Shown in pieces: positions 14,229 through 60,835 of a DNA stretch of 64,000 nucleotides (position 1 is the first letter of the stretch; every line of letters begins with the position of its first letter). Origin of the DNA: an uncultured candidatus Porisulfidus sp. (GTDB lineage Bacteria; Pseudomonadota; Gammaproteobacteria; Poriferisulfidales; Poriferisulfidaceae); NCBI GenBank assembly GCA_965204575.1, contig OZ241993.1, positions 1,536,001-1,600,000 on the forward strand. Reading direction: 5' to 3'. Under the pieces are notes generated by a model that was not told the origin of the DNA, did no database searches, and was given only the letters and a program-made list of their open reading frames with translations. The translations under genes and the position numbers were made by a program.

Positions 14229-17081
14229 TCATGTCTTCGCTTCGGCATCCAGGGAATCCAGTGCCTTGGCCCTTCGGTTCTCCTCAATGGCGCGTTGCGC
14301 GCTGCCGATGATTTCCTCGGCAACCGCCGGTTCCAGCGCCACGTCGACCTCCAAAGAATACCACCGTTCACGGGCAAAACGCTCGCACTTGACCGCATCC
14401 TTGGGCGTCATGACTACCGCGTGACCGTCCGCAAAGTCGAGTTGCCCGGCTCGGAAAGCATGGTGGTCCTCGTAGATGTGCGGAATCGCGTCGATCCCGG
14501 CGCTGGCCAGGGATTCCAGAAACCGGTGCGGATTCCCGATCCCGCAGACCGCGTGCACGGTCTGCCCCGCAAGGCCGGACAGCGGGACCGTGCTGCCGTC
14601 AAGCAAGGAGCGCAGGTGTTTCACCTGCAAGTCGAACCGGTGTTCTCCTTGCTCCGGAGCTCCTCCGTGCACCAGGATCCAATCGGCCAAACGCACGCGC
14701 CCGAGCGGCTCCCTCAGCGGTCCGGCAGGCAGGCACAAGCCGTTGCCGTGCCGGCGTTTGCCGTCCACCACCAGGATCTCGATCTCCCGTGACAAACCCA
14801 AATGCTGCAGCCCGTCATCCGAGAGGATGATGCTGACGGTATGCCGCTCGCAGAGCGCCTGCGCGGCCGCCACCCGGTCCGGGCCTGCAAACACGGGACA
14901 GCCCGTCTGTGCCGCAACCAGAACCGCCTCCTCCCCGACCTCATCGGGGCCAGTCGCGGCATCAACCTCGCGGGGCCAGGTTGTGCTGTCGCCCCGGTAG
15001 CCCCGGCACACGATCCCGACCGAAACTCCCAGGCTTCGAAGCCGGAGTGCCAGCCAGACCACCAGAGGGGTCTTCCCGGTGCCTCCGACGCTCAGGTTGC
15101 CGATCACCGCCACAGGCACCGGCAAGGCAGGCGGCCGGTTCAGCCAACGGCGCCAGATCCGCCGCAGGAACACGCCGGTGCGATACAGCCAACTCAGTGG
15201 CCGCAAGACCCACACCCAGCGGCTATCCCCGTACCAGACGGTCTCGGCAAAACGCGTCACCCAGGACTGATGCCGGGTGCTCTCCGCCTCCAGCAGTTCC
15301 CCGCGGCGGGGTGGGCGTTCCTCGACGTCCCCCGTATCCTGGAACTGATGCTGGTAGAGCTTCCTGTAGACCTGGTTCCTCTGGATCAGCTCCCCATGCG
15401 TGCCCTGCTCGACAACCTCGCCCTGATCCAGGACGACGATCCGGTCTGCCCGTTCAACCGTCGACAGTCGATGCGCGATGATCAGGGTGGTGGAGACTTC
15501 CATGATCTTGTCCAAGGCTTCCTGCACGTACCGCTCGGATTCGCTGTCTAGCGACGAGGTCGCTTCGTCCAGGATCAGGATCGGTGCCCGCTTGTACAGG
15601 GCCCGGGCCAAGGCCAGGCGCTGTCGCTGGCCCCCGGAAAGCTGTACCCCCCCTTCCCCGATGATAGTCTCCAGGCCCTGTGGCAGGCGATCCACAAACT
15701 CGTCGACATGCGCACTGCGCAGCGCCAACTCCAGGTCGTGCTGCTGATCCGGGTCCACCCCATAGGTAATGTTGTTGCGCACCGTGTCGTTGAACAGCAC
15801 CACGTTCTGTCCCACGTAACTGATCAGCCCCCGCAGGTCAGACAGTTGCAGGTCGTTGATCGGAATGTCGTCGATCCGGATTTCCCCGCTCTGCGGGGCA
15901 TAGAAGCGCGGCAACAGGTTGGCCAGCGAAGACTTGCCGGAGCCGGAGCGCCCGACCAGGGCCACGGTCTCGCCGCGCCGGATCGTCAGCGAGACATTGT
16001 GAAGCGCTTCGCGGTCCGCGTTGCGGTAACGCAAACTGATCCGATCATAGGCGATCGAATGCTGCAGATCCTGCTTGGAATGCCCGCCCTGATCCTGTTC
16101 CACCGGGGTGTCCAGCATCTGGAAGACCTGCTGGCCGGCGGCGATGCTCTGCTGCAGCCGGGTGTTGACCTGCACCAGGTTCCGCGCAGGGGCCAACAGC
16201 ATCAGCATGGCGAACATGAACGACACGAACCCGCCGACCGTGATGGTGCTGAGCACCCCTTCCAGCGTCACCAAGTAGACGATGCCGGCCCAGGCCAGCC
16301 CGACCAGCAGCATGATGACCGAAGACACCAAGGCCGCCATCTGTTGCGTGCGGACCTGTCGCTTCCGGAAATACTCGGTCGTCTCATCGAAGCGTGTTTT
16401 CTCCATAGCCTCGGCCTGAAACACCTTCACGACCCGGTAACCCTGGATCACTTCCTGGGCGTTCTGCACGGTCGCGGTGAGCGCCTCCATCATGCGGTGG
16501 CTAAGCTTTCGGACTCTCCGGTTGCTGCTGGGAATCAGCCAGGCGAACACCGGCACGGCGGCCAGGAACGCAACGGTCAGGATCCAGCTCACGTACAGCA
16601 TCCAGCCGACCAGGCCGATCACCATCAGGCTGTCCCGGATCAGGATGGTGAGGCTTTTCGATGCCGCCGTGGTCACGCCCTCGACGTGGCTGGTGATGCG
16701 CGCCAGGAAATCGCTGGAAGCCGTGTGGTCATGGGTTTCCGCCGGAAACTCAAGCAGGCGCGCAAACATTTTCCGCCGCAGGTCCCGGACCAGGCGCGCA
16801 CCGATCTGCGCCATGCAGGACGCACTGAGGTACGAGCCGACCGCCCGCAGTACGAAAATCCCGATCAACGCCAGCGGCACCCAGCGGATCACGTCCGGTT
16901 GCTGCTCGACGATCGCGCCATCCAGAATCGGTTTCATCAGCGCCGACAACGCGGGACCCGTCGCGGCCTCCATCGCCATGCCAAGCAGCGCCAAGGTCAG
17001 GATGCCGGCCTGACCCTGCAGAGCCAGCCGCAGCAACTGCCGGTAAATGTCCATGCCGGAACGGCGCGCAGTCTCGTTCAT
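14229..17081 (-). CDS. msbA-lpxK: Lipid A flippase MsbA fused in frame to tetraacyldisaccharide 4'-kinase LpxK
   Basis: ABC TMD + NBD ([23 protein letters not shown]) continues without a stop into the LpxK domain ([48 protein letters not shown]). Confidence 0.9.
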
Positions 17082-30698: not shown

Positions 30699-30748
30699 GT
30701 CTCGCCTCGGTTTTGACAGGCAAAGCGGTTGCCAGTAAAGTGAGTCGT

Positions 30749-31285
30749 ATGTGGAAAACGGTCTCAGCGGCAGCGGCAATCATACTGGTCGCGGTCGGGT
30801 TCGCAGGCTCCATGGGTGCCTCTATGGTACTGGATGCGACCAACACCACGGAATTCTGCACCTCCTGCCACTCCATGCAGTGGAACGAAGCCGAGTGGAT
30901 GGACTCCGTGCATTTCAAGAATGTATCGGGAGTCCGCGCCAGTTGCGCCGATTGCCATGTTCCGCAATCGCTCATCCCCAAGCTCGGCGCCAAACTGATC
31001 GCCGCGCGTGATGTCTGGGGCGAATTGATGGGGAGCATCGACACGGCCGAGAAATTCGAGGCACACCGCTGGCACATGGCCAGCCGGGTCTGGGACCGGA
31101 TGAAGGCCAACGATTCCCGGGAATGCCAAAGCTGCCACACGTACGATGCGATGGACCTAGACGAGCAGGACCGCAGCGCGCGCAAGAAGCATCACAGGGC
31201 TCCGATGCGCGGCAAGACCTGCATCGAGTGCCACAAGGGCGTCGCACACAAAATGCCAAGACGCCCGGTCGCGGCGAAAGACTGA
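30749..31285 (+). CDS. NapC/NirT-family tetraheme cytochrome c
   Basis: N-terminal TM plus four CxxCH (CTSCH, CADCH, CQSCH, CIECH); KGVAH. Confidence 0.92.
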   Translation: MWKTVSAAAAIILVAVGFAGSMGASMVLDATNTTEFCTSCHSMQWNEAEWMDSVHFKNVSGVRASCADCHVPQSLIPKLGAKLIAARDVWGELMGSIDTAEKFEAHRWHMASRVWDRMKANDSRECQSCHTYDAMDLDEQDRSARKKHHRAPMRGKTCIECHKGVAHKMPRRPVAAKD

Positions 31286-31481
31286 TTTTTGAAGGCGGTC
31301 GCCTGCGGAAAACCGACAAAAATTTCACAGATACGAGCCCTTTTCCGGGCAGAAGACCCCCAAACTCCAGCCTTATCCGGTCGGGATTCATCCTGCGTCT
31401 TCGACTGCTTTTCTCTTGTGTTACGATACCCCCCGATATTGCATCTCGGGCGTTCCCGGACCTTTTGCAGGAGGAGACTCA

Positions 31482-32159
31482 ATGCATTCGCAATTCATTT
31501 CTCGAGCCATTCTGACCAGCGCCCTGCTGCTGTCACCTGCCTTGCATGCGGATCAGCATGGAGACGGGGCCTCGATGGCATCGGTCGAGATGCTGACCGG
31601 CGCGTGCGTGGCCTGCCATGGCCCGGCCGGAGCCAGTGTCGGCCCGGCAATACCTTCCCTGGCGGGACTTCCAGCGGTTTACTTCATCGGCGCCATGCTT
31701 TCCTACAAGCACGGCCAGGACCTGGACGCTGCCGAGGCAGAAGCCGCATCCGACCCCGAACTTGAAGACGTGGAGATCTTTGCCCGTCACGGCACGATCA
31801 TGGACCGGCTCGCCTCTGGCTACACCCTGGCCGAGATCAAGACCATGGCCGACTACTTCGCCGGCAAGCCCGTCGCCTTGGCGACCCAGGAATTCGATGC
31901 CGAACTTGCGAGCATGGGCGAGGCCCTGCATGCAGACAATTGCGAGAAATGCCACGAGGAAGGCGGACGATCCACGGTCGACGACATGGTCCCGCTCGCA
32001 GGGCAATGGAAACATTACCTGCACTACAGCATAGCCGACTTCCACGGCGGTGCGCGGGGCATGCCGAAGAAGATGAAATCCCGGCTTGAAGAAGTCATGG
32101 AAACCGAGGGCGAAGACGGCCTCGCGGCCCTCATCAACTACTACGCCAGCCAGCAGTAA
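31482..32159 (+). CDS. fccA: Diheme cytochrome c subunit of flavocytochrome c sulfide dehydrogenase
   Basis: AGGAGG RBS, signal peptide, CVACH and CEKCH, GPAIP.LAG; upstream of fccB. Confidence 0.88.
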
Positions 32160-32178
32160 TCGCGGAGGAGTAAAGATC

Positions 32179-33465
32179 ATGACAACCCTGACAAGACGCG
32201 GCTTCCTGAAAGCGACCGGCGGCATTGCAGCCGTAGGCGCGGTCGGGATGGGCTTCCCTCAGCTTGCCCTCGGCGGCAACAAGAATGTGGTGGTGATTGG
32301 CGGTGGCGCTGCTGGCGCGGTCGCAGCCAAGCACATCAAACTGGCGGACTCCGGAATTAACGTCACCTTGATCGAAGCCAACGATCACTATTACACCTGT
32401 TTCATGAGCAACGAGGTCATCGGAGGCGACCGGGACATCTCGACCATCCGCCACGGATACGAGGGCCTGGCAAACCACGGCATCGAAGTGGTGCACTCCA
32501 AGGCTACGGGAGTCGACACCGATGCTCGCACCGTCACGACCGAGGGCGGGGACAGTTTCCCGTACGACCGGCTCGTCGTCAGCCCCGGCATCGACCTGAA
32601 GTGGGATGCGATCGAAGGCTATGACATGGCGGCAGCCGAAGCCATGCCCCATGCCTGGAAGGCCGGCCCGCAAACGGCACTGCTGCGCAGCCAGCTTGAG
32701 GCCATGGAAGACGGCGGCACGTTTATCATCTGCCCGCCCGGCAATCCGTTCCGTTGCCCGCCTGGGCCCTACGAGCGGGTCTGCCAAGTTGGCCATTACT
32801 TCAAGGAACACAAGCCCAATTCGAAAATCCTGGTGCTGGACGCCAAGGACAAGTTCTCGAAGATGGGCCTGTTCACGCAAGGCTGGGAGCGTCGCTACGA
32901 CGGCATGATCGAATGGGTGTCCGGTACGGATACCGCTGGCGGCATCGCGGAGGTCAACACCGCCGACATGACGGTGACCACTGAGTTCGGCGACACCCAC
33001 CAAGGCGCGGTGATCAACGTCATCCCACCGCAAAGCGCAGGGCAGATCGCGCAGGCAGCCGGGCTGACCGACGACTCCGGCTGGTGCCCGGTCCATCTTG
33101 ACACCTTCGAGTCGAAACTGGTGCCGGGCGTACACATCATCGGCGATGCCAGCATCGCTACCGGGCTGCCGAAATCCGGATACGCGGCCAATTCCGAAGG
33201 AAAGGTCTGCGCGGCGGCGGTCGTCGCCATGCTGGCCGACGAGGAACCGGGCACGCCGTCCTATGTCAACACCTGCTACAGCCTGATTGCACCGGATTAC
33301 GGCATTTCGGTTGCAGCGGTCTATCGCCTGGCGGAAGACAAGAGCAAGGTCGCCAAGGTAGCCGGAGGCCTGACGCCCTCGGACGCTTCGGACGAGATGC
33401 TGGCCCGCGAGGTTCAGTATGCGTACAGTTGGTACAACAATATCGTGGCGGACATGTTCGCCTGA
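32179..33465 (+). CDS. fccB: Flavocytochrome c sulfide dehydrogenase flavoprotein subunit
   Basis: Tat signal [47 protein letters not shown]. Confidence 0.93.
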
Positions 33466-51788: not shown

Positions 51789-52519
51789 GCGGCCTTGCGA
51801 GCCCGGACCACGATCATGTTCGCGTACAGCCAGGCCGAGATCAGGATCACGAAGTAGGACAGGTCCCGCAAGTCGATCACGCCCTTGTTGATCGAGGAAA
51901 AGTGGGTCAGGAAGCTCAGCGACGCGATGGCATCGACGACCGGCTGCGGGAGCCATAGCTGGAAGAAGTCCAGCACCAGCGGGAAGCCGCTCAGCAGGAA
52001 CAGGAAGCAAGTCACCAGGCTGAGGATGAATGCCACGACCTGGTTGCGCGTGGTCGCGGAAATGCAGGCGCCGATGGCCATGAACCCGCCCGCCATCAGG
52101 AAACTGCCTAGGTAGGCGCCCAGGATGATGCCGTTGTCCGGATCGCCCAGATAGTTGACCGTGAGCCAGATCGGGAACGTCAGGAACAACGCGATGCCGG
52201 TGAAAATCCAGGCTGCCAGGAACTTCCCGAGTACCGCCTGCGGCACGGTCACCGGGAGCGTCATCAGCAGTTCGATGCTGCCGGTCTTCCGCTCCTCCGC
52301 CCACAGGCGCATGGAGATGGCCGGGACCAGGAACAGGTACAGCCAGGGGTGGAACGTGAAGAATGCGCCCAGGTCCGCCTGCTCGCGCTCGTAGAAATTT
52401 CCCAGGTAGAAGCTCAGCGTCCCGGACAGCAGGAGGAAGATCATGATAAAGACATAGGCCACCGGTGTCTGGAAATAGCCAACCAGCTCCCGGCGCAGAA
52501 TCGCGATCAGGTTATTCAT
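51785..52519 (-). CDS. GldF-like ABC-2 permease
   Basis: REL..YF.TP.AY, PAISMRLWAEERK.G.IELL.TLP, GKFLA. Confidence 0.92.
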   Translation of the reverse strand: MNNLIAILRRELVGYFQTPVAYVFIMIFLLLSGTLSFYLGNFYEREQADLGAFFTFHPWLYLFLVPAISMRLWAEERKTGSIELLMTLPVTVPQAVLGKFLAAWIFTGIALFLTFPIWLTVNYLGDPDNGIILGAYLGSFLMAGGFMAIGACISATTRNQVVAFILSLVTCFLFLLSGFPLVLDFFQLWLPQPVVDAIASLSFLTHFSSINKGVIDLRDLSYFVILISAWLYANMIVVRARKAA

Positions 52520-53438
52520 GGACGTTATGGGTCAGGGTGTGGAACACGTCGTCCAGCCGCCCGGCCTGGATGTGCAGCGGAACTTCCTTCAGGTTGTGCC
52601 GCAACAGGACATCGCGGACCGCGCCTTCCAGCGTGCAGCCGGGCCGGGGGATCAGGGTCAGACCCTGATTGCGCTCCGGCTCCACCACCGCGACGTCTTC
52701 GAGTTCGCCAAGCGCGACGCGCACCGGCTCCTTCAATTCCGCCTGGACCGTGACGGCATTGCAGTACCGGGAGCGGCGGCGCAACTCCCCGGGGGTTTCG
52801 TCGACCAGGATCTTGCCGGCGGAGACAATGATGGCCCGCGTGCAGATGGCCTCGACCTCCTCGAGAATGTGCGTCGAGATGATGATGGTCTTGTCCTTCG
52901 CCATCTCATTGATGAAGTCGCGCACCTGGCGCTTCTGGTTCGGATCCAGTCCGTCGGTCGGTTCGTCCATGATCAACACGCGCGGGTCGTGCAGCATGGC
53001 CTGCGCCAGGCCGACCCGGCGGCGGTATCCTTTCGACAGGGTGTCGACCGGGCGGTGCAGCACGGGTTCCAATCCCAACTGCCCGATGACCCAGTCCAGT
53101 CGCCCCCGACGATCTTCGGGCCGGCGGATGTCCGCCACGAAATTCAGGAACTGCCACGGCGTCATCTCGCTGTACGCCGGGGCCCCCTCCGGCAGGTAGC
53201 CCAGGCATCTCTTGGCCGCCTCCGGCTGGGTCTCGGCCGGGTGGCCGCAAACCGTCACGCGGCCCGAGGTTGGCGGCAGGAAGCCGGTGATGATCTTCAT
53301 GGTCGTGGACTTTCCGGCGCCGTTCGGTCCGAGAAAACCCAAGACCTCGCCGGACCCGACCTCAAAGCTCAGGTCGTCCACGGCATGCAGGTCACCGTAG
53401 ATCTTGACTAGGTTTTCAACCACAACAGACCCGGACAT
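52512..53438 (-). CDS. GldA-like ABC ATP-binding protein
   Basis: GPNGAGKSTT, LSKGY.RRVGLAQA, DEPT.GLDPNQ. Confidence 0.92.
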   Translation of the reverse strand: MSGSVVVENLVKIYGDLHAVDDLSFEVGSGEVLGFLGPNGAGKSTTMKIITGFLPPTSGRVTVCGHPAETQPEAAKRCLGYLPEGAPAYSEMTPWQFLNFVADIRRPEDRRGRLDWVIGQLGLEPVLHRPVDTLSKGYRRRVGLAQAMLHDPRVLIMDEPTDGLDPNQKRQVRDFINEMAKDKTIIISTHILEEVEAICTRAIIVSAGKILVDETPGELRRRSRYCNAVTVQAELKEPVRVALGELEDVAVVEPERNQGLTLIPRPGCTLEGAVRDVLLRHNLKEVPLHIQAGRLDDVFHTLTHNVHE

Positions 53439-53557
53439 GTGAGCGCTCCTCTCTTTCTTGTGTATACGGGAGTTCAGGCGTCGCCGATTAATATGGGGCT
53501 TGCCCCTGCCGTTTCAAGCGGATTCCGGTTGCTGCGCATGGTCGAGCGACGGCCCCT

Positions 53558-54457
53558 TCAATCCGCATAGTAGTAGTCGTAGCGCCTCAGCAGGTCCAGC
53601 GAAAACTCCCAGCCCTCCTGATAGGTCAGGTTGCTGTCCATCGGGATCACGATCCGGACGAACAACTTGTTCCCGTGTTCCTCTTTGAGTCGCGACAGGG
53701 CCTGGTGCATTTCTTCCTGACCGACGGGTTCGAATTGCTCGGCGTCCGGGAACTTGAGCATGAACAACGGCTGCCCCTCCACCTTCATGTAGCGAACGGC
53801 CGTGACCACCTTGCCCATGGGGCTGCGGGCCGGCTTGGACAATGCGGCGTATTTCTCGCCCATCTCCTCGTACTCTTTCTGCAGGAGTTCCAGCTCCTCC
53901 CGAGTCTGCCGCTGCTGTTTCTCAACCTCGACGTACATCTGCTCGCGCAATACGTTTTCGTCCCGCATCTTCTCCAATTGCTGCTGTACTTCGAGCAATT
54001 CCTGCTCGCGCTCCGCGCTCACGTCCTGGCTCATCCTCATCTCCGTCTGTACGCGCGCATATTCCTCCTGCATGTCCATCAACTGTATCTGCTGCTCGGC
54101 CAACGCGCCCTGCGCACCGGCCAGGTCTTCCTCCCGCTGTTCCAACTGCCCGGTCTTGGCTTCCAGTGCCTCGCGGGTTTTTCCCATGCGGCCCTGCATC
54201 TCTTCCAACTCGAGTTGAAGCAGCATGCGGCGCAGGTTCAGGTCTTCCGCCCTTTCCCTGGCCTGCCGCTCGAGTGCGACCGTTTCCTGAACCTGTCTGG
54301 ACAGGTCCCAGTTGTGCAGCACGGCGACCGTGCTGGACATCAGGAACACGATGACCACGACCATCATGATGTCGGTGAAGGACGGCCAGAAGTTCTCCTC
54401 GTTGATCGAGGAGAGATGGGAGGCGTAGTCGGGAAACGAGGATTGGCCGCCGATCAT
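53558..54457 (-). CDS. Single-TM coiled-coil protein with MotB-plug-like N-terminus
   Basis: FWPSFTDIMMVVVIVFL (Asp in TM), long heptad-rich region, small globular C-domain ending YDYYYAD. Confidence 0.75.
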   Translation of the reverse strand: MIGGQSSFPDYASHLSSINEENFWPSFTDIMMVVVIVFLMSSTVAVLHNWDLSRQVQETVALERQARERAEDLNLRRMLLQLELEEMQGRMGKTREALEAKTGQLEQREEDLAGAQGALAEQQIQLMDMQEEYARVQTEMRMSQDVSAEREQELLEVQQQLEKMRDENVLREQMYVEVEKQQRQTREELELLQKEYEEMGEKYAALSKPARSPMGKVVTAVRYMKVEGQPLFMLKFPDAEQFEPVGQEEMHQALSRLKEEHGNKLFVRIVIPMDSNLTYQEGWEFSLDLLRRYDYYYAD

Positions 54458-54462
54458 GGTCC

Positions 54463-55383
54463 TTACTGGTCCAACCGGAACCCCTTCATCAGGGTCTTGT
54501 CGATGCTTTGCAGCGCTTCCATCAACTTCTTGCTGTGTTCGTTCTGCACGTGCCGCTCGTGGCGCATGGCTTCAAGGTGCGGAGCCAGGCGGTCCTGGAC
54601 TTCCGCCAAGGCAATGGCCACTTCGTTGAGGTCCTTCAGCCTGAGCGCCAAGGTGTGGGCCAGGTTTCCTCCTTCCCGTGACACCAGTGGCAGTAGCCGG
54701 CGCAAGGTCAACATCTCGATCTGCTGGCACACGCTGGACTGGCTCGCCACCAGCCGGGAAAAGATGAGCGTCAGCACCAAGTAGGCTGCAATAGCGGTCA
54801 TCGTGGTGGAAAGCGCGGTCGCCATCCCGTGGACCACCAGGCCGATGCCGCCTCCATTCTGCGGGAAGGACAGCAGGTCGGAAGCCCCAACCAGGGCCAA
54901 GGACAGCGATGCGACCGTCCCGAACACGCCGAGCAGGATCAGCAAGCTCTGTATCAAGCGGATCAGGCCGAGACGCGTCATCTCCTGGTTCAGCAGGATG
55001 GCCGACAGGGCCGCCTGCTGGGGGCGGTCCAGTTCCGATCGACCCTGCTGCAGGACGCGGTAACGCTGTACGATCAGGGATTCGGACAGGCCTTCGATGC
55101 CGGCCTCGGTCAGGCCGAAATCCACCTGCTCCTCGAACAGGGCAATGGTGCGGCTCTCGTGAGTGTAGGCGAACAACAGGTAGAAAACCCGAGCCAACGC
55201 CACCAGAAACAACACCCCGATGATGCCGTTGACGACCATGCCGAGTTGCGTCGCCAAGGGTCCCAAGTAGACTTCTTCCAGGGTCGCCCTTTGCCAGTAC
55301 AACAAGGCGGCGAACAGGAGCAGCGCGATGCCCGCCTGCAGTATCATGAAGTTCGGGCGGCTTGTAAAAATCTTTTGAATCAT
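54463..55383 (-). CDS. MotA/TolQ/ExbB-family membrane protein
   Basis: Four hydrophobic segments; LLGVFGTV...GMATALSTT channel motif. Confidence 0.8.
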   Translation of the reverse strand: MIQKIFTSRPNFMILQAGIALLLFAALLYWQRATLEEVYLGPLATQLGMVVNGIIGVLFLVALARVFYLLFAYTHESRTIALFEEQVDFGLTEAGIEGLSESLIVQRYRVLQQGRSELDRPQQAALSAILLNQEMTRLGLIRLIQSLLILLGVFGTVASLSLALVGASDLLSFPQNGGGIGLVVHGMATALSTTMTAIAAYLVLTLIFSRLVASQSSVCQQIEMLTLRRLLPLVSREGGNLAHTLALRLKDLNEVAIALAEVQDRLAPHLEAMRHERHVQNEHSKKLMEALQSIDKTLMKGFRLDQ

Positions 55384-55480
55384 GGCGTTAGCGATGAAAT
55401 TGTCGTTCGCTTCCAGCCCTCCTTAGGCCGGGGAAGTATATCAGAACGGCTTGTTTTCATGCTGGTTTTTCGGGGGAATG

Positions 55481-55782
55481 TGGTGCGGGCGGAGGGATTC
55501 GAACCCCCACGGGCAAAGCCCAGCGGATTTTCGCACCAGCTACGGCTTTCGCCGCCGCCGCTGTGCGGCGTTTGTGGTCCGGACTATCCCTTCACCTTAG
55601 CCATCCGGCCTTAGGCGCTGCCCGTCTAGTCTCTACACCTTCCCGGAAATTCCTTCCCAGGCTTGGCTCGGGATCGCCATTTGACAGGGTTCCCCGAATT
55701 TGAGCAGTTCTACATCCCCGGTTTCCCGGGGAGCACTCAAAAGCCTCAAGTCCGCAGCGTCTACCGGTTCCGCCACGCCCGC
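55481..55782 (-). tRNA. leuZ: tRNA-Leu(UAA), interrupted: exon 1 55782-55748, exon 2 55531-55481
   Basis: Spliced 86-nt cloverleaf: acceptor GCGGGCG/CGCCCGC-ACCA, anticodon arm GCGGA-CTTAAAA-TCCGC, long variable arm, TTCGAAT; third gene of the Gly-Cys-Leu cluster. Confidence 0.93.
55532..55747 (-). ncRNA. Group I self-splicing intron (216 nt, IC3-like) in the tRNA-Leu anticodon
   Basis: Exon U before intron, terminal G; P1 ACTT/GAGT; P AAATTCGGGGAA, Q GATCCCGAGC, R GTAGAGACTAGACGG, S AAGGGATAGTCC; P3 CTGCTC/GGGCAG; P7 GACTA/TAGTC; GAAA tetraloops. Confidence 0.92.
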
Positions 55783-55819
55783 AACGCGCCCATCATAGTA
55801 CATAGGGAGTGGAGATTGA

Positions 55820-55893
55820 TGGAGGCTGAGGTCGGAATCGAACCGGCGTCCACGGCTTTGCAGGCCGCTGCATAACCACTCTGCCACTCAGCC
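55820..55893 (-). tRNA. cysT: tRNA-Cys(GCA)
   Basis: GGCTGAG...GCGGC-CTGCAAA-GCCGT...TTCGATT...CTCAGCC-TCCA. Confidence 0.95.
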
Positions 55894-55907
55894 CCAAAGC
55901 AAGGAAC

Positions 55908-55983
55908 TGGAGCGGGAAACCGGGTTCGAACCGGCGACCTTAACCTTGGCAAGGTTACGCTCTACCAACTGAGCTATTCCCGC
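55908..55983 (-). tRNA. glyW: tRNA-Gly(GCC)
   Basis: GCGGGAATAGCTCAGTTGGTAGAGC...TTGCCAA...TTCGAAC...TTCCCGC-TCCA. Confidence 0.97.
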
Positions 55984-56170
55984 TCCGCGCGGCAGAATTG
56001 TCGCACCCCCACCCGGGGCTGTCAAATGAAAAGGCAAAAAAACCCGGGAGCAGTCGCATCGATCTTCGACTTCGGAGCCAATTAATTCCGTTTCTGTTAA
56101 AATTGCCCGGTTAGCCTTTCCGGGTTCGCGATTTCGCGTCGCGCCGGGCAAGGTTGCCCTAATCAATGAG

Positions 56171-57490
56171 ATGAGGAACTCTCAAGTGGATCGAGAAAAA
56201 CAGATTGAAGCCCTACAGAAAGACTGGGATAGCAACCCTCGCTGGAGCGACGTACGTCGCGGCTACACAGCGGAAGATGTCGTGCGCCTGCGCGGCTCGC
56301 GCGTGCCTGCCAACACCACCGCGACGGAAGGTGCCGAGAAGCTCTGGCGCCTGGTCAACGGCGAGGCGCGCAAGGGTTACGTTAACTGCCTCGGCGCCCT
56401 GACCGGCGGCCAGGCGGTGCAGCAGGTCAAGGCTGGCATCGAGGCCATCTACCTGTCCGGCTGGCAGGTTGCTGCTGACGCCAACACATCCGAAACCATG
56501 TACCCGGACCAGTCCCTGTACGCCTACGATTCGGTGCCGACCGTGGTACGCCGCATCAATAACGCGTTCAAGCGCGCGGACGAGATCCAGTGGTCGCGCG
56601 GCACCAATCCCGGCGATGAGGAATTCGTCGACTATTTCGCCCCGATCGTGGCCGATGCCGAGGCCGGGTTCGGCGGCGTGCTCAACGCCTTCGAGCTGAT
56701 GAAAAACATGATCAACAACGGTGCCGCCGGGGTCCACTACGAGGACCAGCTGGCCGCCGTCAAGAAGTGCGGCCACATGGGCGGAAAAGTGCTGGTGCCG
56801 ACCCAGGAGGCGGTCCAGAAACTGGTCGCGGCCCGGCTGGCCGCCGACGTCATGGGCGTCCCCACCGTGGTACTGGCGCGCACCGATGCGGAAGCCGCCA
56901 ACCTCGTGACCTCCGACTTCGACGAGAACGACAAGCCTTTCCTGACCGGCGAGCGGACCTCCGAAGGGTTCTACCGTGTGCGCAACGGCCTCGACCAAGC
57001 AATCTCGCGCGGCCTGGCGTACGCGCCTTACGCGGACCTAGTCTGGTGCGAGACCGGCACGCCGGATCTGGAATTCGCCGGGGCGTTCGCGGAAGCCCTG
57101 CGCAAGGAGTACCCAAATCAGCTGCTGGCTTACAACTGCTCCCCCTCCTTCAACTGGCGGAAGAACCTGGACGACGCGACGATCGCGAAGTTCCAGCGCG
57201 AGCTGTCGGCGATGGGCTATAAATACCAGTTCATCACCCTGGCCGGCATCCACAGCATGTGGTACAACATGTTCGACCTTGCCTACGACTACGCGGGCGA
57301 GGAAGGCATGAAGCATTACGTGGAGAAAGTCCAGGAGCCGGAGTTCGCTTCGGCAGACCGGGGCTACACGTTCGTCAGCCACCAGCAGGAGGTCGGGGCC
57401 GGCTACTTCGATGACGTGACCACCGTCATCCAGGGCGGGCAGTCTTCCGTCACGGCACTGACCGGGTCCACTGAAGAAGAGCAGTTCTGA
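56171..57490 (+). CDS. aceA: Isocitrate lyase
   Basis: [42 protein letters not shown]. Confidence 0.98.
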
Positions 57491-57513
57491 CGGCCCTCGG
57501 CCAAGGGTGCGGC

Positions 57514-58857
<1,344 letters not shown>

Positions 58858-58901
58858 CGCGGGTCTTGCTATAATTGTTATTCCCCGATCACGGCAGTGT
58901 C

Positions 58902-59234
58902 ATGCAAGAACCAGAGCCGATCTACAAAGTGATTTTCTTCTCCAACGGGGAAATCTACGAGATCTACGCGGAGCACGTCTACTCCTCCGACCTGTATGGC
59001 TTCATCGTCATCGAGGGAATCATTTTCGGCGAGAAAGCGAAAGTGGTGGTCGACCCGAGTGAAGAACGGCTGAAGGCCGAGTTTGAGTCCGTCCCTCGGA
59101 CCTATATCCCGATGCACTCGGTCATGCGCATCGACGAGGTGGAGAAAGCGGGAACCGGCGAAATCCGCAAGGCCGAAGGAAACGTCACGTACCTGCCCCC
59201 GATGGCGGGAACGGGCGACATCCAGAAAGCCTGA
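58902..59234 (+). CDS. DUF1820-family protein
   Basis: IYKV.F...G.IYE.YA, VVDPSEERLK.EF, IPMH.V.RIDEV. Confidence 0.88.
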   Translation: MQEPEPIYKVIFFSNGEIYEIYAEHVYSSDLYGFIVIEGIIFGEKAKVVVDPSEERLKAEFESVPRTYIPMHSVMRIDEVEKAGTGEIRKAEGNVTYLPPMAGTGDIQKA

Positions 59235-59255
59235 GGCTTCCACCGGAGGGATCCC

Positions 59256-59346
<91 letters not shown>

Positions 59347-59485
59347 GATCTTGCGGTCGGCTAATGACCTCATCTGAAACCTTGAAACAGCCTGATGTCG
59401 CCATGATTCCTATCCAGATCGACCCCCTCAAACCGACTAAATAACAAGACGAAAATTATCCGAACGGGGTATACTTTCCGGGATT

Positions 59486-60835
59486 ATGCCTTCTCTGTCT
59501 CGCGTCGCGCCCGTACTCCCGCTTGCAGCCATCCTCACCCTGCCCGCCTGGGCGGCGTTCCCTTGGGAAGGCAGCGAGGATTCGCTGCCTTCGCTGGCCC
59601 CGATGCTCGAAAAAACCGTGCCGGCGGTCGTCAATATCTCCACCGCCCACGAAGAGGTGGTGCGCACGGGCCCGTTGTTCCGAGACCCTTTCTTCCAGCA
59701 TTTTTTCGGCCTGCCCGGCCAACAGACCCGGAAACGGGTGCGACGAGGCCTCGGCACCGGCGTGATCCTGGATGCGGAAAAAGGCCATGTCGTCACCAAC
59801 CATCACCTGATCGCGCGAGCCGATGACATCACGGTGGCCCTGAGCGACGGGCGTGAAGTCAAGGCCGAATTGATCGGCTCGGACAGCGAAACGGACGTGG
59901 CCATGCTGCGTATCGAGACCGGGGACCTGACCAGCCTGCCATTCGCCGATCCCGAGCAACTTCGAGTCGGCGATTTCGTCGTGGCGATCGGCAATCCTTT
60001 CGGCTTAGGCCAGACCGTAACTTCCGGGATCGTCAGCGCGCTGGGCCGCAGCGGCGTATTCGACAACTACGGCTACGAGGACTTCATCCAGACCGACGCC
60101 TCTATCAACCCCGGAAATTCCGGCGGCGCCCTGGTGAACTTGCGCGGTGAACTGGTCGGCATCAATACCGCGATCCTGAGCCGGTCCGGCGGCAATATCG
60201 GGATCGGTTTCGCGATCCCCATCCACATGGTGCTACAGGTGGCCGACCAGTTGACCGAATTCGGCCAGGTACAGCGCGGCCAACTCGGGGTACAGGCTCA
60301 AGCCATGACCCCGGAACTGACGGAAGCATTCGGCCTCAAACAAACTGAGGGCGTCGTCATCACCGAAGTGGTGGAAGGATCCCCGGCCGACCAAGCCGGA
60401 ATTGTCCCGGGAGACATTCTGGTGCGCATTGATGGAGAAGAGATCCGTGATGTCAAGGACATGCGCAATGTGCTGGGCCTGCTGCGTGCTGGCCGAGAAG
60501 TGGAGATTGAACTGCTCCGCGGCCGCGAGACCGTAACCGTCCGCGCGGCGACCGCGACCCTGCGCATCGACGGGGCCAATCTCCACTCGGCCCTGGCCGG
60601 GCTGACGCTGTCGACCCAGCGGGATGCCGAGACGACGTTCGTCGAAATCGTCAAGGCCGAGCCCGGTTATCCTGCCACGCAAGCCGGAATTCGCGCCGGC
60701 GACCGGTTGCGTTCCGTCAACCGCCGCCCCGTGAAGAGCGTGGAGGATGTCCGCGCCACCATCAACCGGGGTTCCGCTCAAGTGCTGCTTCAGGTCCAGC
60801 GCGGAACACGCAGCCAGTTCATTTTGCTGCCCTGA
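59486..60835 (+). CDS. degQ: DegQ/DegP (Do-family) serine protease with two PDZ domains
   Basis: Signal peptide, TNHH, AIGNPFGL, IQTDA.INPGNSGG. Confidence 0.93.
   Translation: MPSLSRVAPVLPLAAILTLPAWAAFPWEGSEDSLPSLAPMLEKTVPAVVNISTAHEEVVRTGPLFRDPFFQHFFGLPGQQTRKRVRRGLGTGVILDAEKGHVVTNHHLIARADDITVALSDGREVKAELIGSDSETDVAMLRIETGDLTSLPFADPEQLRVGDFVVAIGNPFGLGQTVTSGIVSALGRSGVFDNYGYEDFIQTDASINPGNSGGALVNLRGELVGINTAILSRSGGNIGIGFAIPIHMVLQVADQLTEFGQVQRGQLGVQAQAMTPELTEAFGLKQTEGVVITEVVEGSPADQAGIVPGDILVRIDGEEIRDVKDMRNVLGLLRAGREVEIELLRGRETVTVRAATATLRIDGANLHSALAGLTLSTQRDAETTFVEIVKAEPGYPATQAGIRAGDRLRSVNRRPVKSVEDVRATINRGSAQVLLQVQRGTRSQFILLP

Follow-up and report, generated by a model that had tools for sequence, protein, structure and literature searches.

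Very probably, the tRNA-Leu(UAA) gene described here, the last in a Gly-Cys-Leu cluster of an uncultured gammaproteobacterium, is interrupted between U34 and A35 by a genuine IC3 group I intron that seems to have been inherited within its lineage. The gene lies in the window, the 64-kb stretch of DNA that was analyzed as a whole, and all coordinates below are counted along it. Biologically, it is one more member of a large catalogued class and marks no rare event; its practical value is a corrected tRNA annotation of the genome.

When 55440..55830 is read on the minus strand, a tRNA-like 5' half ending ...GCGGACUU is followed by about 216 nt, after which AAAAUCCGC... takes up the tRNA again, leading into a variable arm, then a T arm and an acceptor strand, and finally CCA. 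With introns allowed, ARAGORN called tRNA-Leu(taa) at 55481..55782 on the minus strand and set the insertion after linear position 35 (cut U34^A35A36), that is, between U34 and A35, the site that defines the bacterial class Leu.3Ug. Removal of the intron in the same call leaves an 86-nt cloverleaf tRNA with an encoded CCA. The first-pass annotation had described a compact, ORF-less group I intron of 216 nt at the classical U^AA site of this gene and a perfect 86-nt tRNA after its removal, and each of these points, including the coordinates, was confirmed. The parts of the gene are listed below; pre-tRNA positions (p) equal 55783 minus the window coordinate.

55481..55782, minus strand: split tRNA-Leu(UAA) gene (ARAGORN with introns; end-to-end alignment with 72 homologues)
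55748..55782, minus strand: 5' exon, 35 nt, 3' end ...GACUU (U34) (ARAGORN with introns; GACTT in 73/73 aligned)
55532..55747, minus strand: group I intron, 216 nt, without ORF (ARAGORN with introns, Rfam alignment, covariation)
55532, minus strand: terminal (omega) G of the intron, G251 (G in 73/73 sequences)
55481..55531, minus strand: 3' exon, 51 nt, AAAAUC start, encoded CCA end (ARAGORN with introns; cloverleaf pairing)

The splice boundaries are unambiguous: in P1 the final U of the exon is paired with a G, and the intron closes with a G. They are also identical in all 73 aligned sequences, in which the 5' exon ends GACTT and a G precedes the 3' exon; the latter starts AAAATC in 72 sequences and AAAATT in one. 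Across this alignment the exon cloverleaf is 99.1% paired, with compensatory change at 13 of 23 pairs, indicating that the spliced product is under selection as a tRNA.

The 216 nt of the intron hold at most 71 codons. Seven ORFs of at least 20 aa overlap it; just one of them, an antisense ORF of 46 aa, is fully contained in it, and Pfam gave no match for the two long ones that extend beyond it (54829..55614, plus strand; 55633..55887, minus strand). The ORF list and the Pfam searches on these two longer ORFs thus revealed no homing endonuclease ORF inside the intron, as had been noted at first reading. Since the intron encodes no protein, any spread must be passive.

Default annotation passes over this gene. 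In the window, default ARAGORN reported only tRNA-Cys(GCA), tRNA-Gly(GCC) and a tRNA-Ser at 59256..59346 and was silent at the tRNA-Leu locus, and Rfam at gathering thresholds returned the same three tRNAs, with no match at the tRNA-Leu or intron locus. In E-value mode, positions 1-253 of the Rfam model Intron_gpI (RF00028) aligned to 55569..55757 on the minus strand with 45.3 bits (E = 3.3e-10 on 801 nt, E = 2.6e-8 on the whole window). The gathering score of this model is 50, which explains the silence of the default search at the intron. Both computational checks suggested at the outset, a covariance-model search and ARAGORN with introns, were therefore positive, the former as a full-length alignment though below the gathering score. 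Rfam seed sequences of the group I model include none from bacteria, and Williams (2020; 10.1101/2020.01.27.920355), who used matches down to 18-20 bits, stated that such split tRNA genes are routinely overlooked by annotation. RefSeq records of E. coli plasmids likewise carry a homologous split tRNA without an annotated feature, so the initial remark that standard annotation often misses such genes was apt. Under default tRNA and Rfam annotation, the tRNA-Leu(UAA) gene is missed and the organism would wrongly seem to lack a reader of UUA. This codon accounts for 21 of 1,692 Leu codons in the window and occurs in 12 of 37 confident genes; being in use, it requires a tRNA with the UAA anticodon.

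The tRNA-Leu gene is the last in an operon-like cluster, with tRNA-Gly(GCC) and tRNA-Cys(GCA) directly upstream on the same strand, and ARAGORN thereby bore out the Gly-Cys-Leu context proposed earlier. The other elements of the cluster are as follows.

55820..55893, minus strand: tRNA-Cys(GCA), in the operon-like cluster (default ARAGORN, Rfam)
55908..55983, minus strand: tRNA-Gly(GCC), first in the cluster (default ARAGORN, Rfam)
55997..56025, minus strand: sigma-70-like match TTGACA-17-GACAAT, a consensus match only, ending 13 nt before tRNA-Gly

The surroundings are those of an ordinary chromosomal stretch, with ribBA-ribH-nusB, glyA, an msbA-lpxK fusion and ccm genes, together with genes for a flavocytochrome c sulfide dehydrogenase, an autotransporter, isocitrate lyase and isocitrate dehydrogenase, and mfd, csiV, nagZ, rarA, lolA, ftsK, trxB, degP, mrdA and rodA. 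That the host is a gammaproteobacterium, as first proposed, is backed by three observations. One E. coli chromosome carries an uninterrupted tRNA-Gly(GCC)-Cys(GCA)-Leu(UAA) series in the same order downstream of pgsA, which we take to be glyW-cysT-leuZ (identity to the window genes: Gly 65/76, Cys 56/74, Leu 62/87). The ftsK-lolA-rarA segment is collinear with E. coli, three pieces joining into one place at 67% identity. Finally, the named relatives of AceA, at 84-86% identity, belong to MAGs labelled Pseudomonadota or Gammaproteobacteria bacterium.

To describe the intron fold, the window sequence and its alignment to Rfam served to build a P1-P9 model, which was then placed on an alignment of 73 sequences by 397 columns, consisting of the window copy and 72 end-to-end homologues among the matches listed; these homologues were picked by end-to-end BLAST similarity to the window, which biases the set towards similar exons. 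All helices of the model pair in the window sequence.

55735..55751, minus strand: P1, exon A32-U35 with intron G36 and A37 pairing with U43-U48; compensatory change at 2/6 pairs
55715..55732, minus strand: P2 hairpin, GAAA tetraloop, p51-68; compensatory change at 7/7 pairs
55702..55707, minus strand: P3 5' strand, p76-81, partner 55618..55623; 99.8% paired, compensatory change at 1/6 pairs
55637..55697, minus strand: P4-P5-P6-P6a domain, p86-146, P6a loop GGAA (Rfam alignment, covariation)
55627..55633, minus strand: P7 5' strand with bulged A151, p150-156 (Rfam alignment; invariant in 73/73)
55618..55623, minus strand: P3 3' strand, p160-165 (covariation on 73 sequences)
55593..55617, minus strand: P8, p166-190, internal loop CCUAAG / UAAGG (covariation, strand variants)
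55581..55586, minus strand: P7 3' strand, p197-202 (invariant in 73/73)
55535..55578, minus strand: P9 domain, with P9 at p205-208/245-248, P9a at p213-218/222-227 and P9b at p229-240 (covariation)

Over the whole model, 96.2% of cells fall in standard pairs, compared with 27.4-43.5% when the partners are slid by 1-3 columns, a measure on which the model has an advantage over its slid versions, because it stems from a sequence that is itself in the alignment. Compensatory change on both sides occurs at 28 of 59 pairs (shuffled mean 20.2, sd 1.4), and the covariation score is 0.287, against 0.112 in shuffles. None of 500 shuffles reached the observed value on any of five measures, counts that are not probabilities, given that the aligned sequences are related.

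Compensatory change backs P1, P2, P3, P5, P6a, P8 and the three P9 helices. At the P3 pair 77/164, for example, 57 sequences have U-A and 16 have C-G, and at one of the two P5 pairs 52 have C-G and 21 have G-C. Compensation was further found at 3/4 pairs of P6a, 2/4 of proximal P8, 3/3 of distal P8 (only 74.9% paired), 1/4 of P9, 4/4 of P9a and 4/4 of P9b. Covariation is silent on P4 (0/6, invariant), P6 (0/3) and P7 (0/6, invariant), because these helices do not vary. Because the search pattern prescribed the P7 5' strand together with its neighbours (17 specified bases), their invariance arises by construction; the P7 3' strand lies outside this pattern, yet is invariant in all 73 sequences.

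Several details of the fold are shared across the family. The U35.G45 wobble of P1, which marks the 5' splice site, is U.G in 73 of 73 sequences, and GAAA closes P2 in the window and in 71/73 sequences and P9b in the window and in 69/73. The short P5 of the window (at most 8 nt between two conserved pairs) is found in 49 of the 73. Beside the bulged A151, G152 (55631) pairs with C201 (55582) at the P7 columns of the Rfam model, a pair expected, from the Tetrahymena and Azoarcus introns, to be the guanosine-binding pair of P7. The internal loop of P8, CCUAAG / UAAGG, presumably resembles the 11-nt GAAA-tetraloop receptor, although its UAAGG strand departs from what we take to be the canonical UAUGG; the CCUAAG form is present in 24/73 sequences and the UAAGG form in 7/73. 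For P10, three U-A pairs are possible in the window; across the alignment the 3' exon never varies, and slid versions score equally. The minimum-free-energy fold (-91 kcal/mol, z = -2.99, matched by 1 of 200 shuffles) contains P2, P6a and P9b, and it was not relied on because the pseudoknotted core is beyond its reach.

Taken together, the intron has the group I core, with helices P3-P8 arranged in P4-P6 and P3-P7-P8 domains and a P3/P7 pseudoknot, along with the terminal G251 at the 3' splice site and the U.G wobble of P1 at the 5' splice site. The initial description of P1, P3, P7, P/Q/R/S and the terminal G as intact agrees with this, P1, P3, P4, P7 and the terminal G all being present. Its layout is that of subgroup IC3, with GAAA loops on P2 and P9b, a short P5 and no P5abc or P2.1 extension, an assignment based on the general definition of the subgroup and on the statement by Williams about these classes.

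To place the intron among its relatives, species-representative genomes were scanned with an 18-nt motif (J6/7, P7 5' strand and J7/3, with one N), yielding at least 120 loci, a number that gives no measure of frequency. Of the 120 loci listed, 115 were matched in a BLAST search with the window split gene, 72 of them end to end. According to record titles, these 72 among the matches listed comprise 47 Alphaproteobacteria, 12 Terriglobia, 3 other Acidobacteriota, 4 unclassified Pseudomonadota, 1 Binatia, 1 Micavibrio, 1 'Candidatus Porisulfidus' and 3 labelled Gammaproteobacteria (Halioglobus, Carnimonas and Microbulbifer). No cyanobacterial locus is among the 120 matches listed. ARAGORN assigned Leu(taa) to 62 of the 121 pattern matches listed and made no call at 10, the rest being Met, Ser, Arg, Phe, Thr or Ile; these counts are not taken as frequencies, because in several of the Ser and Phe cases the splice site was misplaced and the gene is in fact Leu(UAA). 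Some motif matches represent other tRNA-intron classes with the same core, such as those with CAT and CCT anticodons, and the core motif is common to alpha-, beta-, gammaproteobacterial and acidobacterial copies. On a larger scale, a survey of 80,413 bacterial genomes by Williams (2020; 10.1101/2020.01.27.920355) counted 5,292 tRNA genes interrupted by a group I intron; the four classical classes, all of subgroup IC3 and Leu.3Ug (CUU/a...g/AAAA) among them, together hold 3,453 introns. The intron family is thus common across many bacteria, and the window copy is an ordinary addition to a large catalogued class. The earlier view that this site is only sporadically reported in proteobacteria is outdated, given the classical status of Leu.3Ug (Williams 2020) and at least 47 alphaproteobacterial homologues found here.

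Related split tRNA-Leu(UAA) genes also occur, unannotated, on plasmids (1,275 records, the majority enterobacterial), and one related copy is present in a 735-kb phage genome. In the one plasmid example examined, the split gene adjoins aac(3)-IId in an IS26-bounded resistance region. The plasmid copy beside aac(3)-IId resembles the window copy in gene, site and fold elements, with 74-75% identity over the whole 302 nt, but differs from it in lying within a resistance region on plasmids. The nearest relative of the plasmid copy among the matches listed is an alphaproteobacterial MAG (L095, 85.8%) rather than the window. These plasmid and giant-phage copies may interest others more than the window intron itself.

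The origin of the window copy was approached through an intron tree (225 columns kept, GTR+F+G4). Its sister among the matches listed is L071, from a 'Candidatus Porisulfidus' MAG, with support of 99/97; the class of L071 was inferred from its Gly-Cys-Leu cluster. The two share the Gly-Cys-Leu order, with a Cys-Leu gap of 1,264 nt in L071 versus 37 nt in the window, and are identical at 74/76 positions of tRNA-Gly, 72/74 of tRNA-Cys, 78/87 of the Leu exons and 188/219 of the intron. A tblastx comparison of window positions 52000-59500 with the loci listed revealed no wider synteny beyond tRNA-Gly and tRNA-Cys matches in L071 and in the Carnimonas locus L065. As the nearest copy, L071, has 97% identical tRNA-Gly and tRNA-Cys genes in the same cluster order, the intron predates the split of the window and L071 lineages, and the window copy seems to have come down within its lineage rather than to have been acquired recently. 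The first-pass annotation had called it horizontally acquired, which this genome does not support as stated, its sister lying in a related MAG with the same tRNA cluster.

The alternative that keeps the most weight, which we consider possible but on the whole unlikely, is a recent acquisition, in which an intron-less leuZ-type gene gave way to the intron, or the whole intron-bearing gene, from a different class such as Alphaproteobacteria. In its favour, the window copy and L071 stand among alphaproteobacterial rows of the intron tree (weak support, 86/79), and the three rows labelled Gammaproteobacteria require 3 changes, no better clustered than shuffled labels (500/500). A single clade of all five gammaproteobacterial rows was rejected by the AU test (p-AU 0.0077), a result weakened by the fact that the gammaproteobacterial groups were named after the tree was seen. 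Moreover, the Carnimonas copy (L065) and the Microbulbifer copy (L094) lie within a group of marine alphaproteobacterial copies, the Leu tRNA after splicing resembles that of E. coli less (62/87) than tRNA-Gly does (65/76), and the copies on plasmids and in a giant phage mean that vehicles exist. Against these points stands the close relationship with L071 described above, which makes the intron older than the lineage split. In addition, a clade of the window copy, L071 and the Halioglobus copy (L061) is compatible with the data (p-AU 0.54, the tree being 2.9 log-likelihood units better), and the tree is built on only 225 columns, with support below 80 on 27 of 70 inner branches.

The phylogenetic check proposed at the outset therefore gave a divided answer: the gammaproteobacterial copies fall outside a single clade, while the sister relationship of the window copy and L071 speaks against a recent event. 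Because the gammaproteobacterial copies are not one clade, transfer between classes somewhere in the history of the family is likely, as judged from these sequences, and inheritance within the lineage is retained for the window copy itself.

More tentatively still, what moves may be the tRNA-Leu(UAA) gene as a whole, exons and intron together, rather than the intron by itself, crossing between classes as recombination in its conserved exon arms replaces intron-less alleles; here, the native third gene of the Gly-Cys-Leu cluster would have been displaced. Three hints, none decisive, point in this direction. In the alignment, the Carnimonas and Microbulbifer exons look like alphaproteobacterial ones; the Leu exons are less conserved between the window and L071 than tRNA-Gly and tRNA-Cys; and the same split gene is found on plasmid records and in a phage genome. 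Recombination of the whole locus has already been proposed for cyanobacteria (Rudi 2002, as cited in the available text of PMC3984707).

Turning from origin to condition, of 175 columns with a 90% consensus the window copy deviates at 2 (pre-tRNA positions 203 and 249), and departures across the family have a median of 1 and a maximum of 9; both of its deviations are also present in the sister L071. With 216 nt, the intron is the 14th shortest of 73 (range 202-267). The sequence thus gives no sign of decay, and its conservation suggests that the intron is probably active. A decayed intron in a tRNA pseudogene, with a dead ribozyme and tRNA-Leu(UAA) supplied by another gene, is accordingly very improbable. 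Such a reading could draw on the Rfam score below the gathering threshold, the non-canonical receptor strand of P8, the short P5 and a tRNA gene inventory that covers the 64-kb window only. However, 173 of 175 conserved columns are kept, all helices pair, the exons form a full cloverleaf with an encoded CCA, and the gene occupies the conserved third place of a Gly-Cys-Leu cluster behind a promoter-like site, while a short P5 (49/73) and the variant receptor strand (7/73) are common in the family. An artefact, whether a chance resemblance or a chimeric assembly with a foreign tRNA-intron fragment, is barely credible: assembly error is conceivable for an uncultured organism, but the match reaches E = 2.6e-8 on the whole window, exons and intron meet at exact boundaries, and in the independent MAG of L071 the same split gene also lies downstream of these two tRNAs.

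For an intact group I intron inherited with its tRNA gene, a mechanism can be proposed along known lines. Bacterial group I introns splice in two guanosine-initiated steps and show a bias to tRNA and rRNA genes (Hausner 2014, in the available text of PMC3984707). Here, the cluster would be transcribed from the promoter-like site upstream of tRNA-Gly, and the intron RNA is predicted to fold into two stacked domains, P4-P6 and P3-P7-P8-P9, with the GAAA loops of P2 and P9b docking into helical receptors. A free guanosine bound at G152-C201 of P7 would attack after the U35.G45 wobble of P1, and G251 would then occupy the same guanosine site. The 3' exon AAAA may pair with the guide U run as P10, leading to ligation of the exons and release of an 86-nt tRNA reading UUA. 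Spread of the intron would be passive, by recombination with an intron-bearing allele or by reverse splicing.

Among known systems, one of the closest is the tRNA-Leu(UAA) intron of cyanobacteria and plastids, for which Kuhsel 1990 and Xu 1990 are cited in the available text of PMC3984707. The intron of Nostoc azollae interrupts the same gene at the same site (CUU / intron ending g / AAAA), and the cyanobacterial and plastid class shares with the window copy the U-1.G wobble, the terminal G, the lack of an ORF and subgroup IC3, the last as reported for the class by Williams (2020). The window copy differs in its gammaproteobacterial host, and the likeness is one of gene, site and features. Within the same class of bacteria, Vepritskiy, Vitol and Nierzwicki-Bauer reportedly described, in J Bacteriol in 2002, a tRNA-Leu(UAA) intron from a deep-subsurface gamma-proteobacterial isolate, inserted at the same site and said to self-splice in vitro.

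Two further groups of proteobacterial introns share the compact design in other tRNA genes. The Azoarcus intron, which we take to be an ORF-less IC3 intron of about 200 nt with GAAA tetraloops on P2 and P9, resembles the window copy in these respects; it differs in tRNA and anticodon-loop position, and hence in its P1/P10 guide. The 18-nt J6/7-P7-J7/3 motif is also present in 8 split tRNA(CAT) loci called by ARAGORN among the matches listed, at least six of which have betaproteobacterial titles. The alphaproteobacterial tRNA-Arg(CCU) introns (Agrobacterium; BbgpI of Bartonella bacilliformis) are likewise ORF-less and located in an unannotated proteobacterial tRNA gene, and BbgpI splices itself in vitro and undergoes splicing in vivo, as described in the available text of PMC7717549. 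The same text cites Paquin 1999 in attributing the sporadic spread of this intron to horizontal transmission. Six loci that ARAGORN called split tRNA-Arg(cct) among the matches listed carry the core motif of the window copy, and these introns differ from it in their tRNA and insertion site.

An unannotated homologue of the window's tRNA-Leu(UAA) gene, likewise split by a group I intron, is carried on resistance plasmids, both on the Escherichia coli plasmid pEcIMT16316 and in many other plasmid records. The example examined here is as follows:

L121:6001-6300, split tRNA-Leu(UAA) on E. coli plasmid pEcIMT16316 (NZ_CP023816.1)

The plasmid gene is approximately 299 nt long, shares 74-75% identity with the window's gene and is misread by ARAGORN as tRNA-Stop(tta). 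A search of 5,426 complete E. coli genomes identified 587 plasmid sites bearing the homologue, and in PLSDB it was found in 1,275 of the 72,556 plasmid records, near full length in 1,266, with carriers in Escherichia (486), Klebsiella (357), Salmonella (114), Acinetobacter (78) and other genera. On pEcIMT16316, a distance of 92 nt separates the split gene from an "AAA family ATPase" gene; aac(3)-IId comes next, and IS26 copies lie on both sides. Among the matches listed, the closest relative of the plasmid copy is an alphaproteobacterial metagenome-assembled genome (MAG; L095, 85.8% identity). Another MAG (L009, "Proteobacteria bacterium") contains a full split tRNA-Leu together with a further partial copy, which is 90.6% identical to the plasmid-borne version across 171 nt:

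L009:2467-2632, strand opposite to the full split tRNA-Leu, partial second copy

In the intron tree of 73 sequences, the introns of two gammaproteobacteria, Carnimonas nigrificans (L065) and Microbulbifer sp. (L094), were placed within a marine alphaproteobacterial group, the comparison rows being L006, L008, L064, L068 and L120. Alignment revealed that their exons also resemble alphaproteobacterial exons; this resemblance, together with the nesting of the introns, suggests that the whole split gene moved between classes. The Carnimonas split gene is still located 3' of tRNA-Gly and tRNA-Cys.

At three loci carrying the core motif of the genome scan (L014, L069 and L113), ARAGORN called a split tRNA-Leu(caa), with introns of approximately 620 nt in two of the three, leaving room enough for an ORF. 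These loci may be members of "Leu.3Cg", a class in which position -1 is C and whose splicing ability was flagged as untested in Williams 2020 (bioRxiv 10.1101/2020.01.27.920355).

Several protein-coding genes of the window were also recorded:

14229-17081, minus strand, 950-aa ORF fusing an MsbA-like ABC exporter (ABC_membrane and ABC_tran) to a complete LpxK tetraacyldisaccharide-1-P 4'-kinase domain
30713-31285, plus strand, NapC/NirT-type tetrahaem cytochrome, adjoining the sulfide dehydrogenase genes
31416-33465, plus strand, dihaem cytochrome c and flavocytochrome c sulfide dehydrogenase flavoprotein

In E. coli, the two lipid A genes msbA and lpxK are neighbouring yet separate. The dihaem cytochrome c, flavocytochrome c sulfide dehydrogenase and NapC/NirT-type cytochrome are encoded side by side, a gene content that points to a sulfide-oxidising lifestyle. 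Weak, sub-threshold Rfam matches at 59242-59365 (Plastid-psbl-rps4, 45.9 bits; sX4, 32.2 bits) overlap tRNA-Ser(GGA) at 59256..59346 and look like cross-matches derived from the tRNA rather than separate RNAs.

A split tRNA-Leu(taa) is also present in a giant-phage genome; its group I intron measures 205 nt and occupies the insertion site used in the window's gene:

L123:395-685, split tRNA-Leu(taa) of an uncultured phage (LR756501.1, 735,411 bp)

The same match was found in LR756503.1; in Gordonia phage Daredevil and Pelagibacter phage HTVC120P, the core was matched in part. According to a 2014 review (PMC3984707), all phage group I introns then known resided in protein-coding genes, although phage tRNA genes are numerous.
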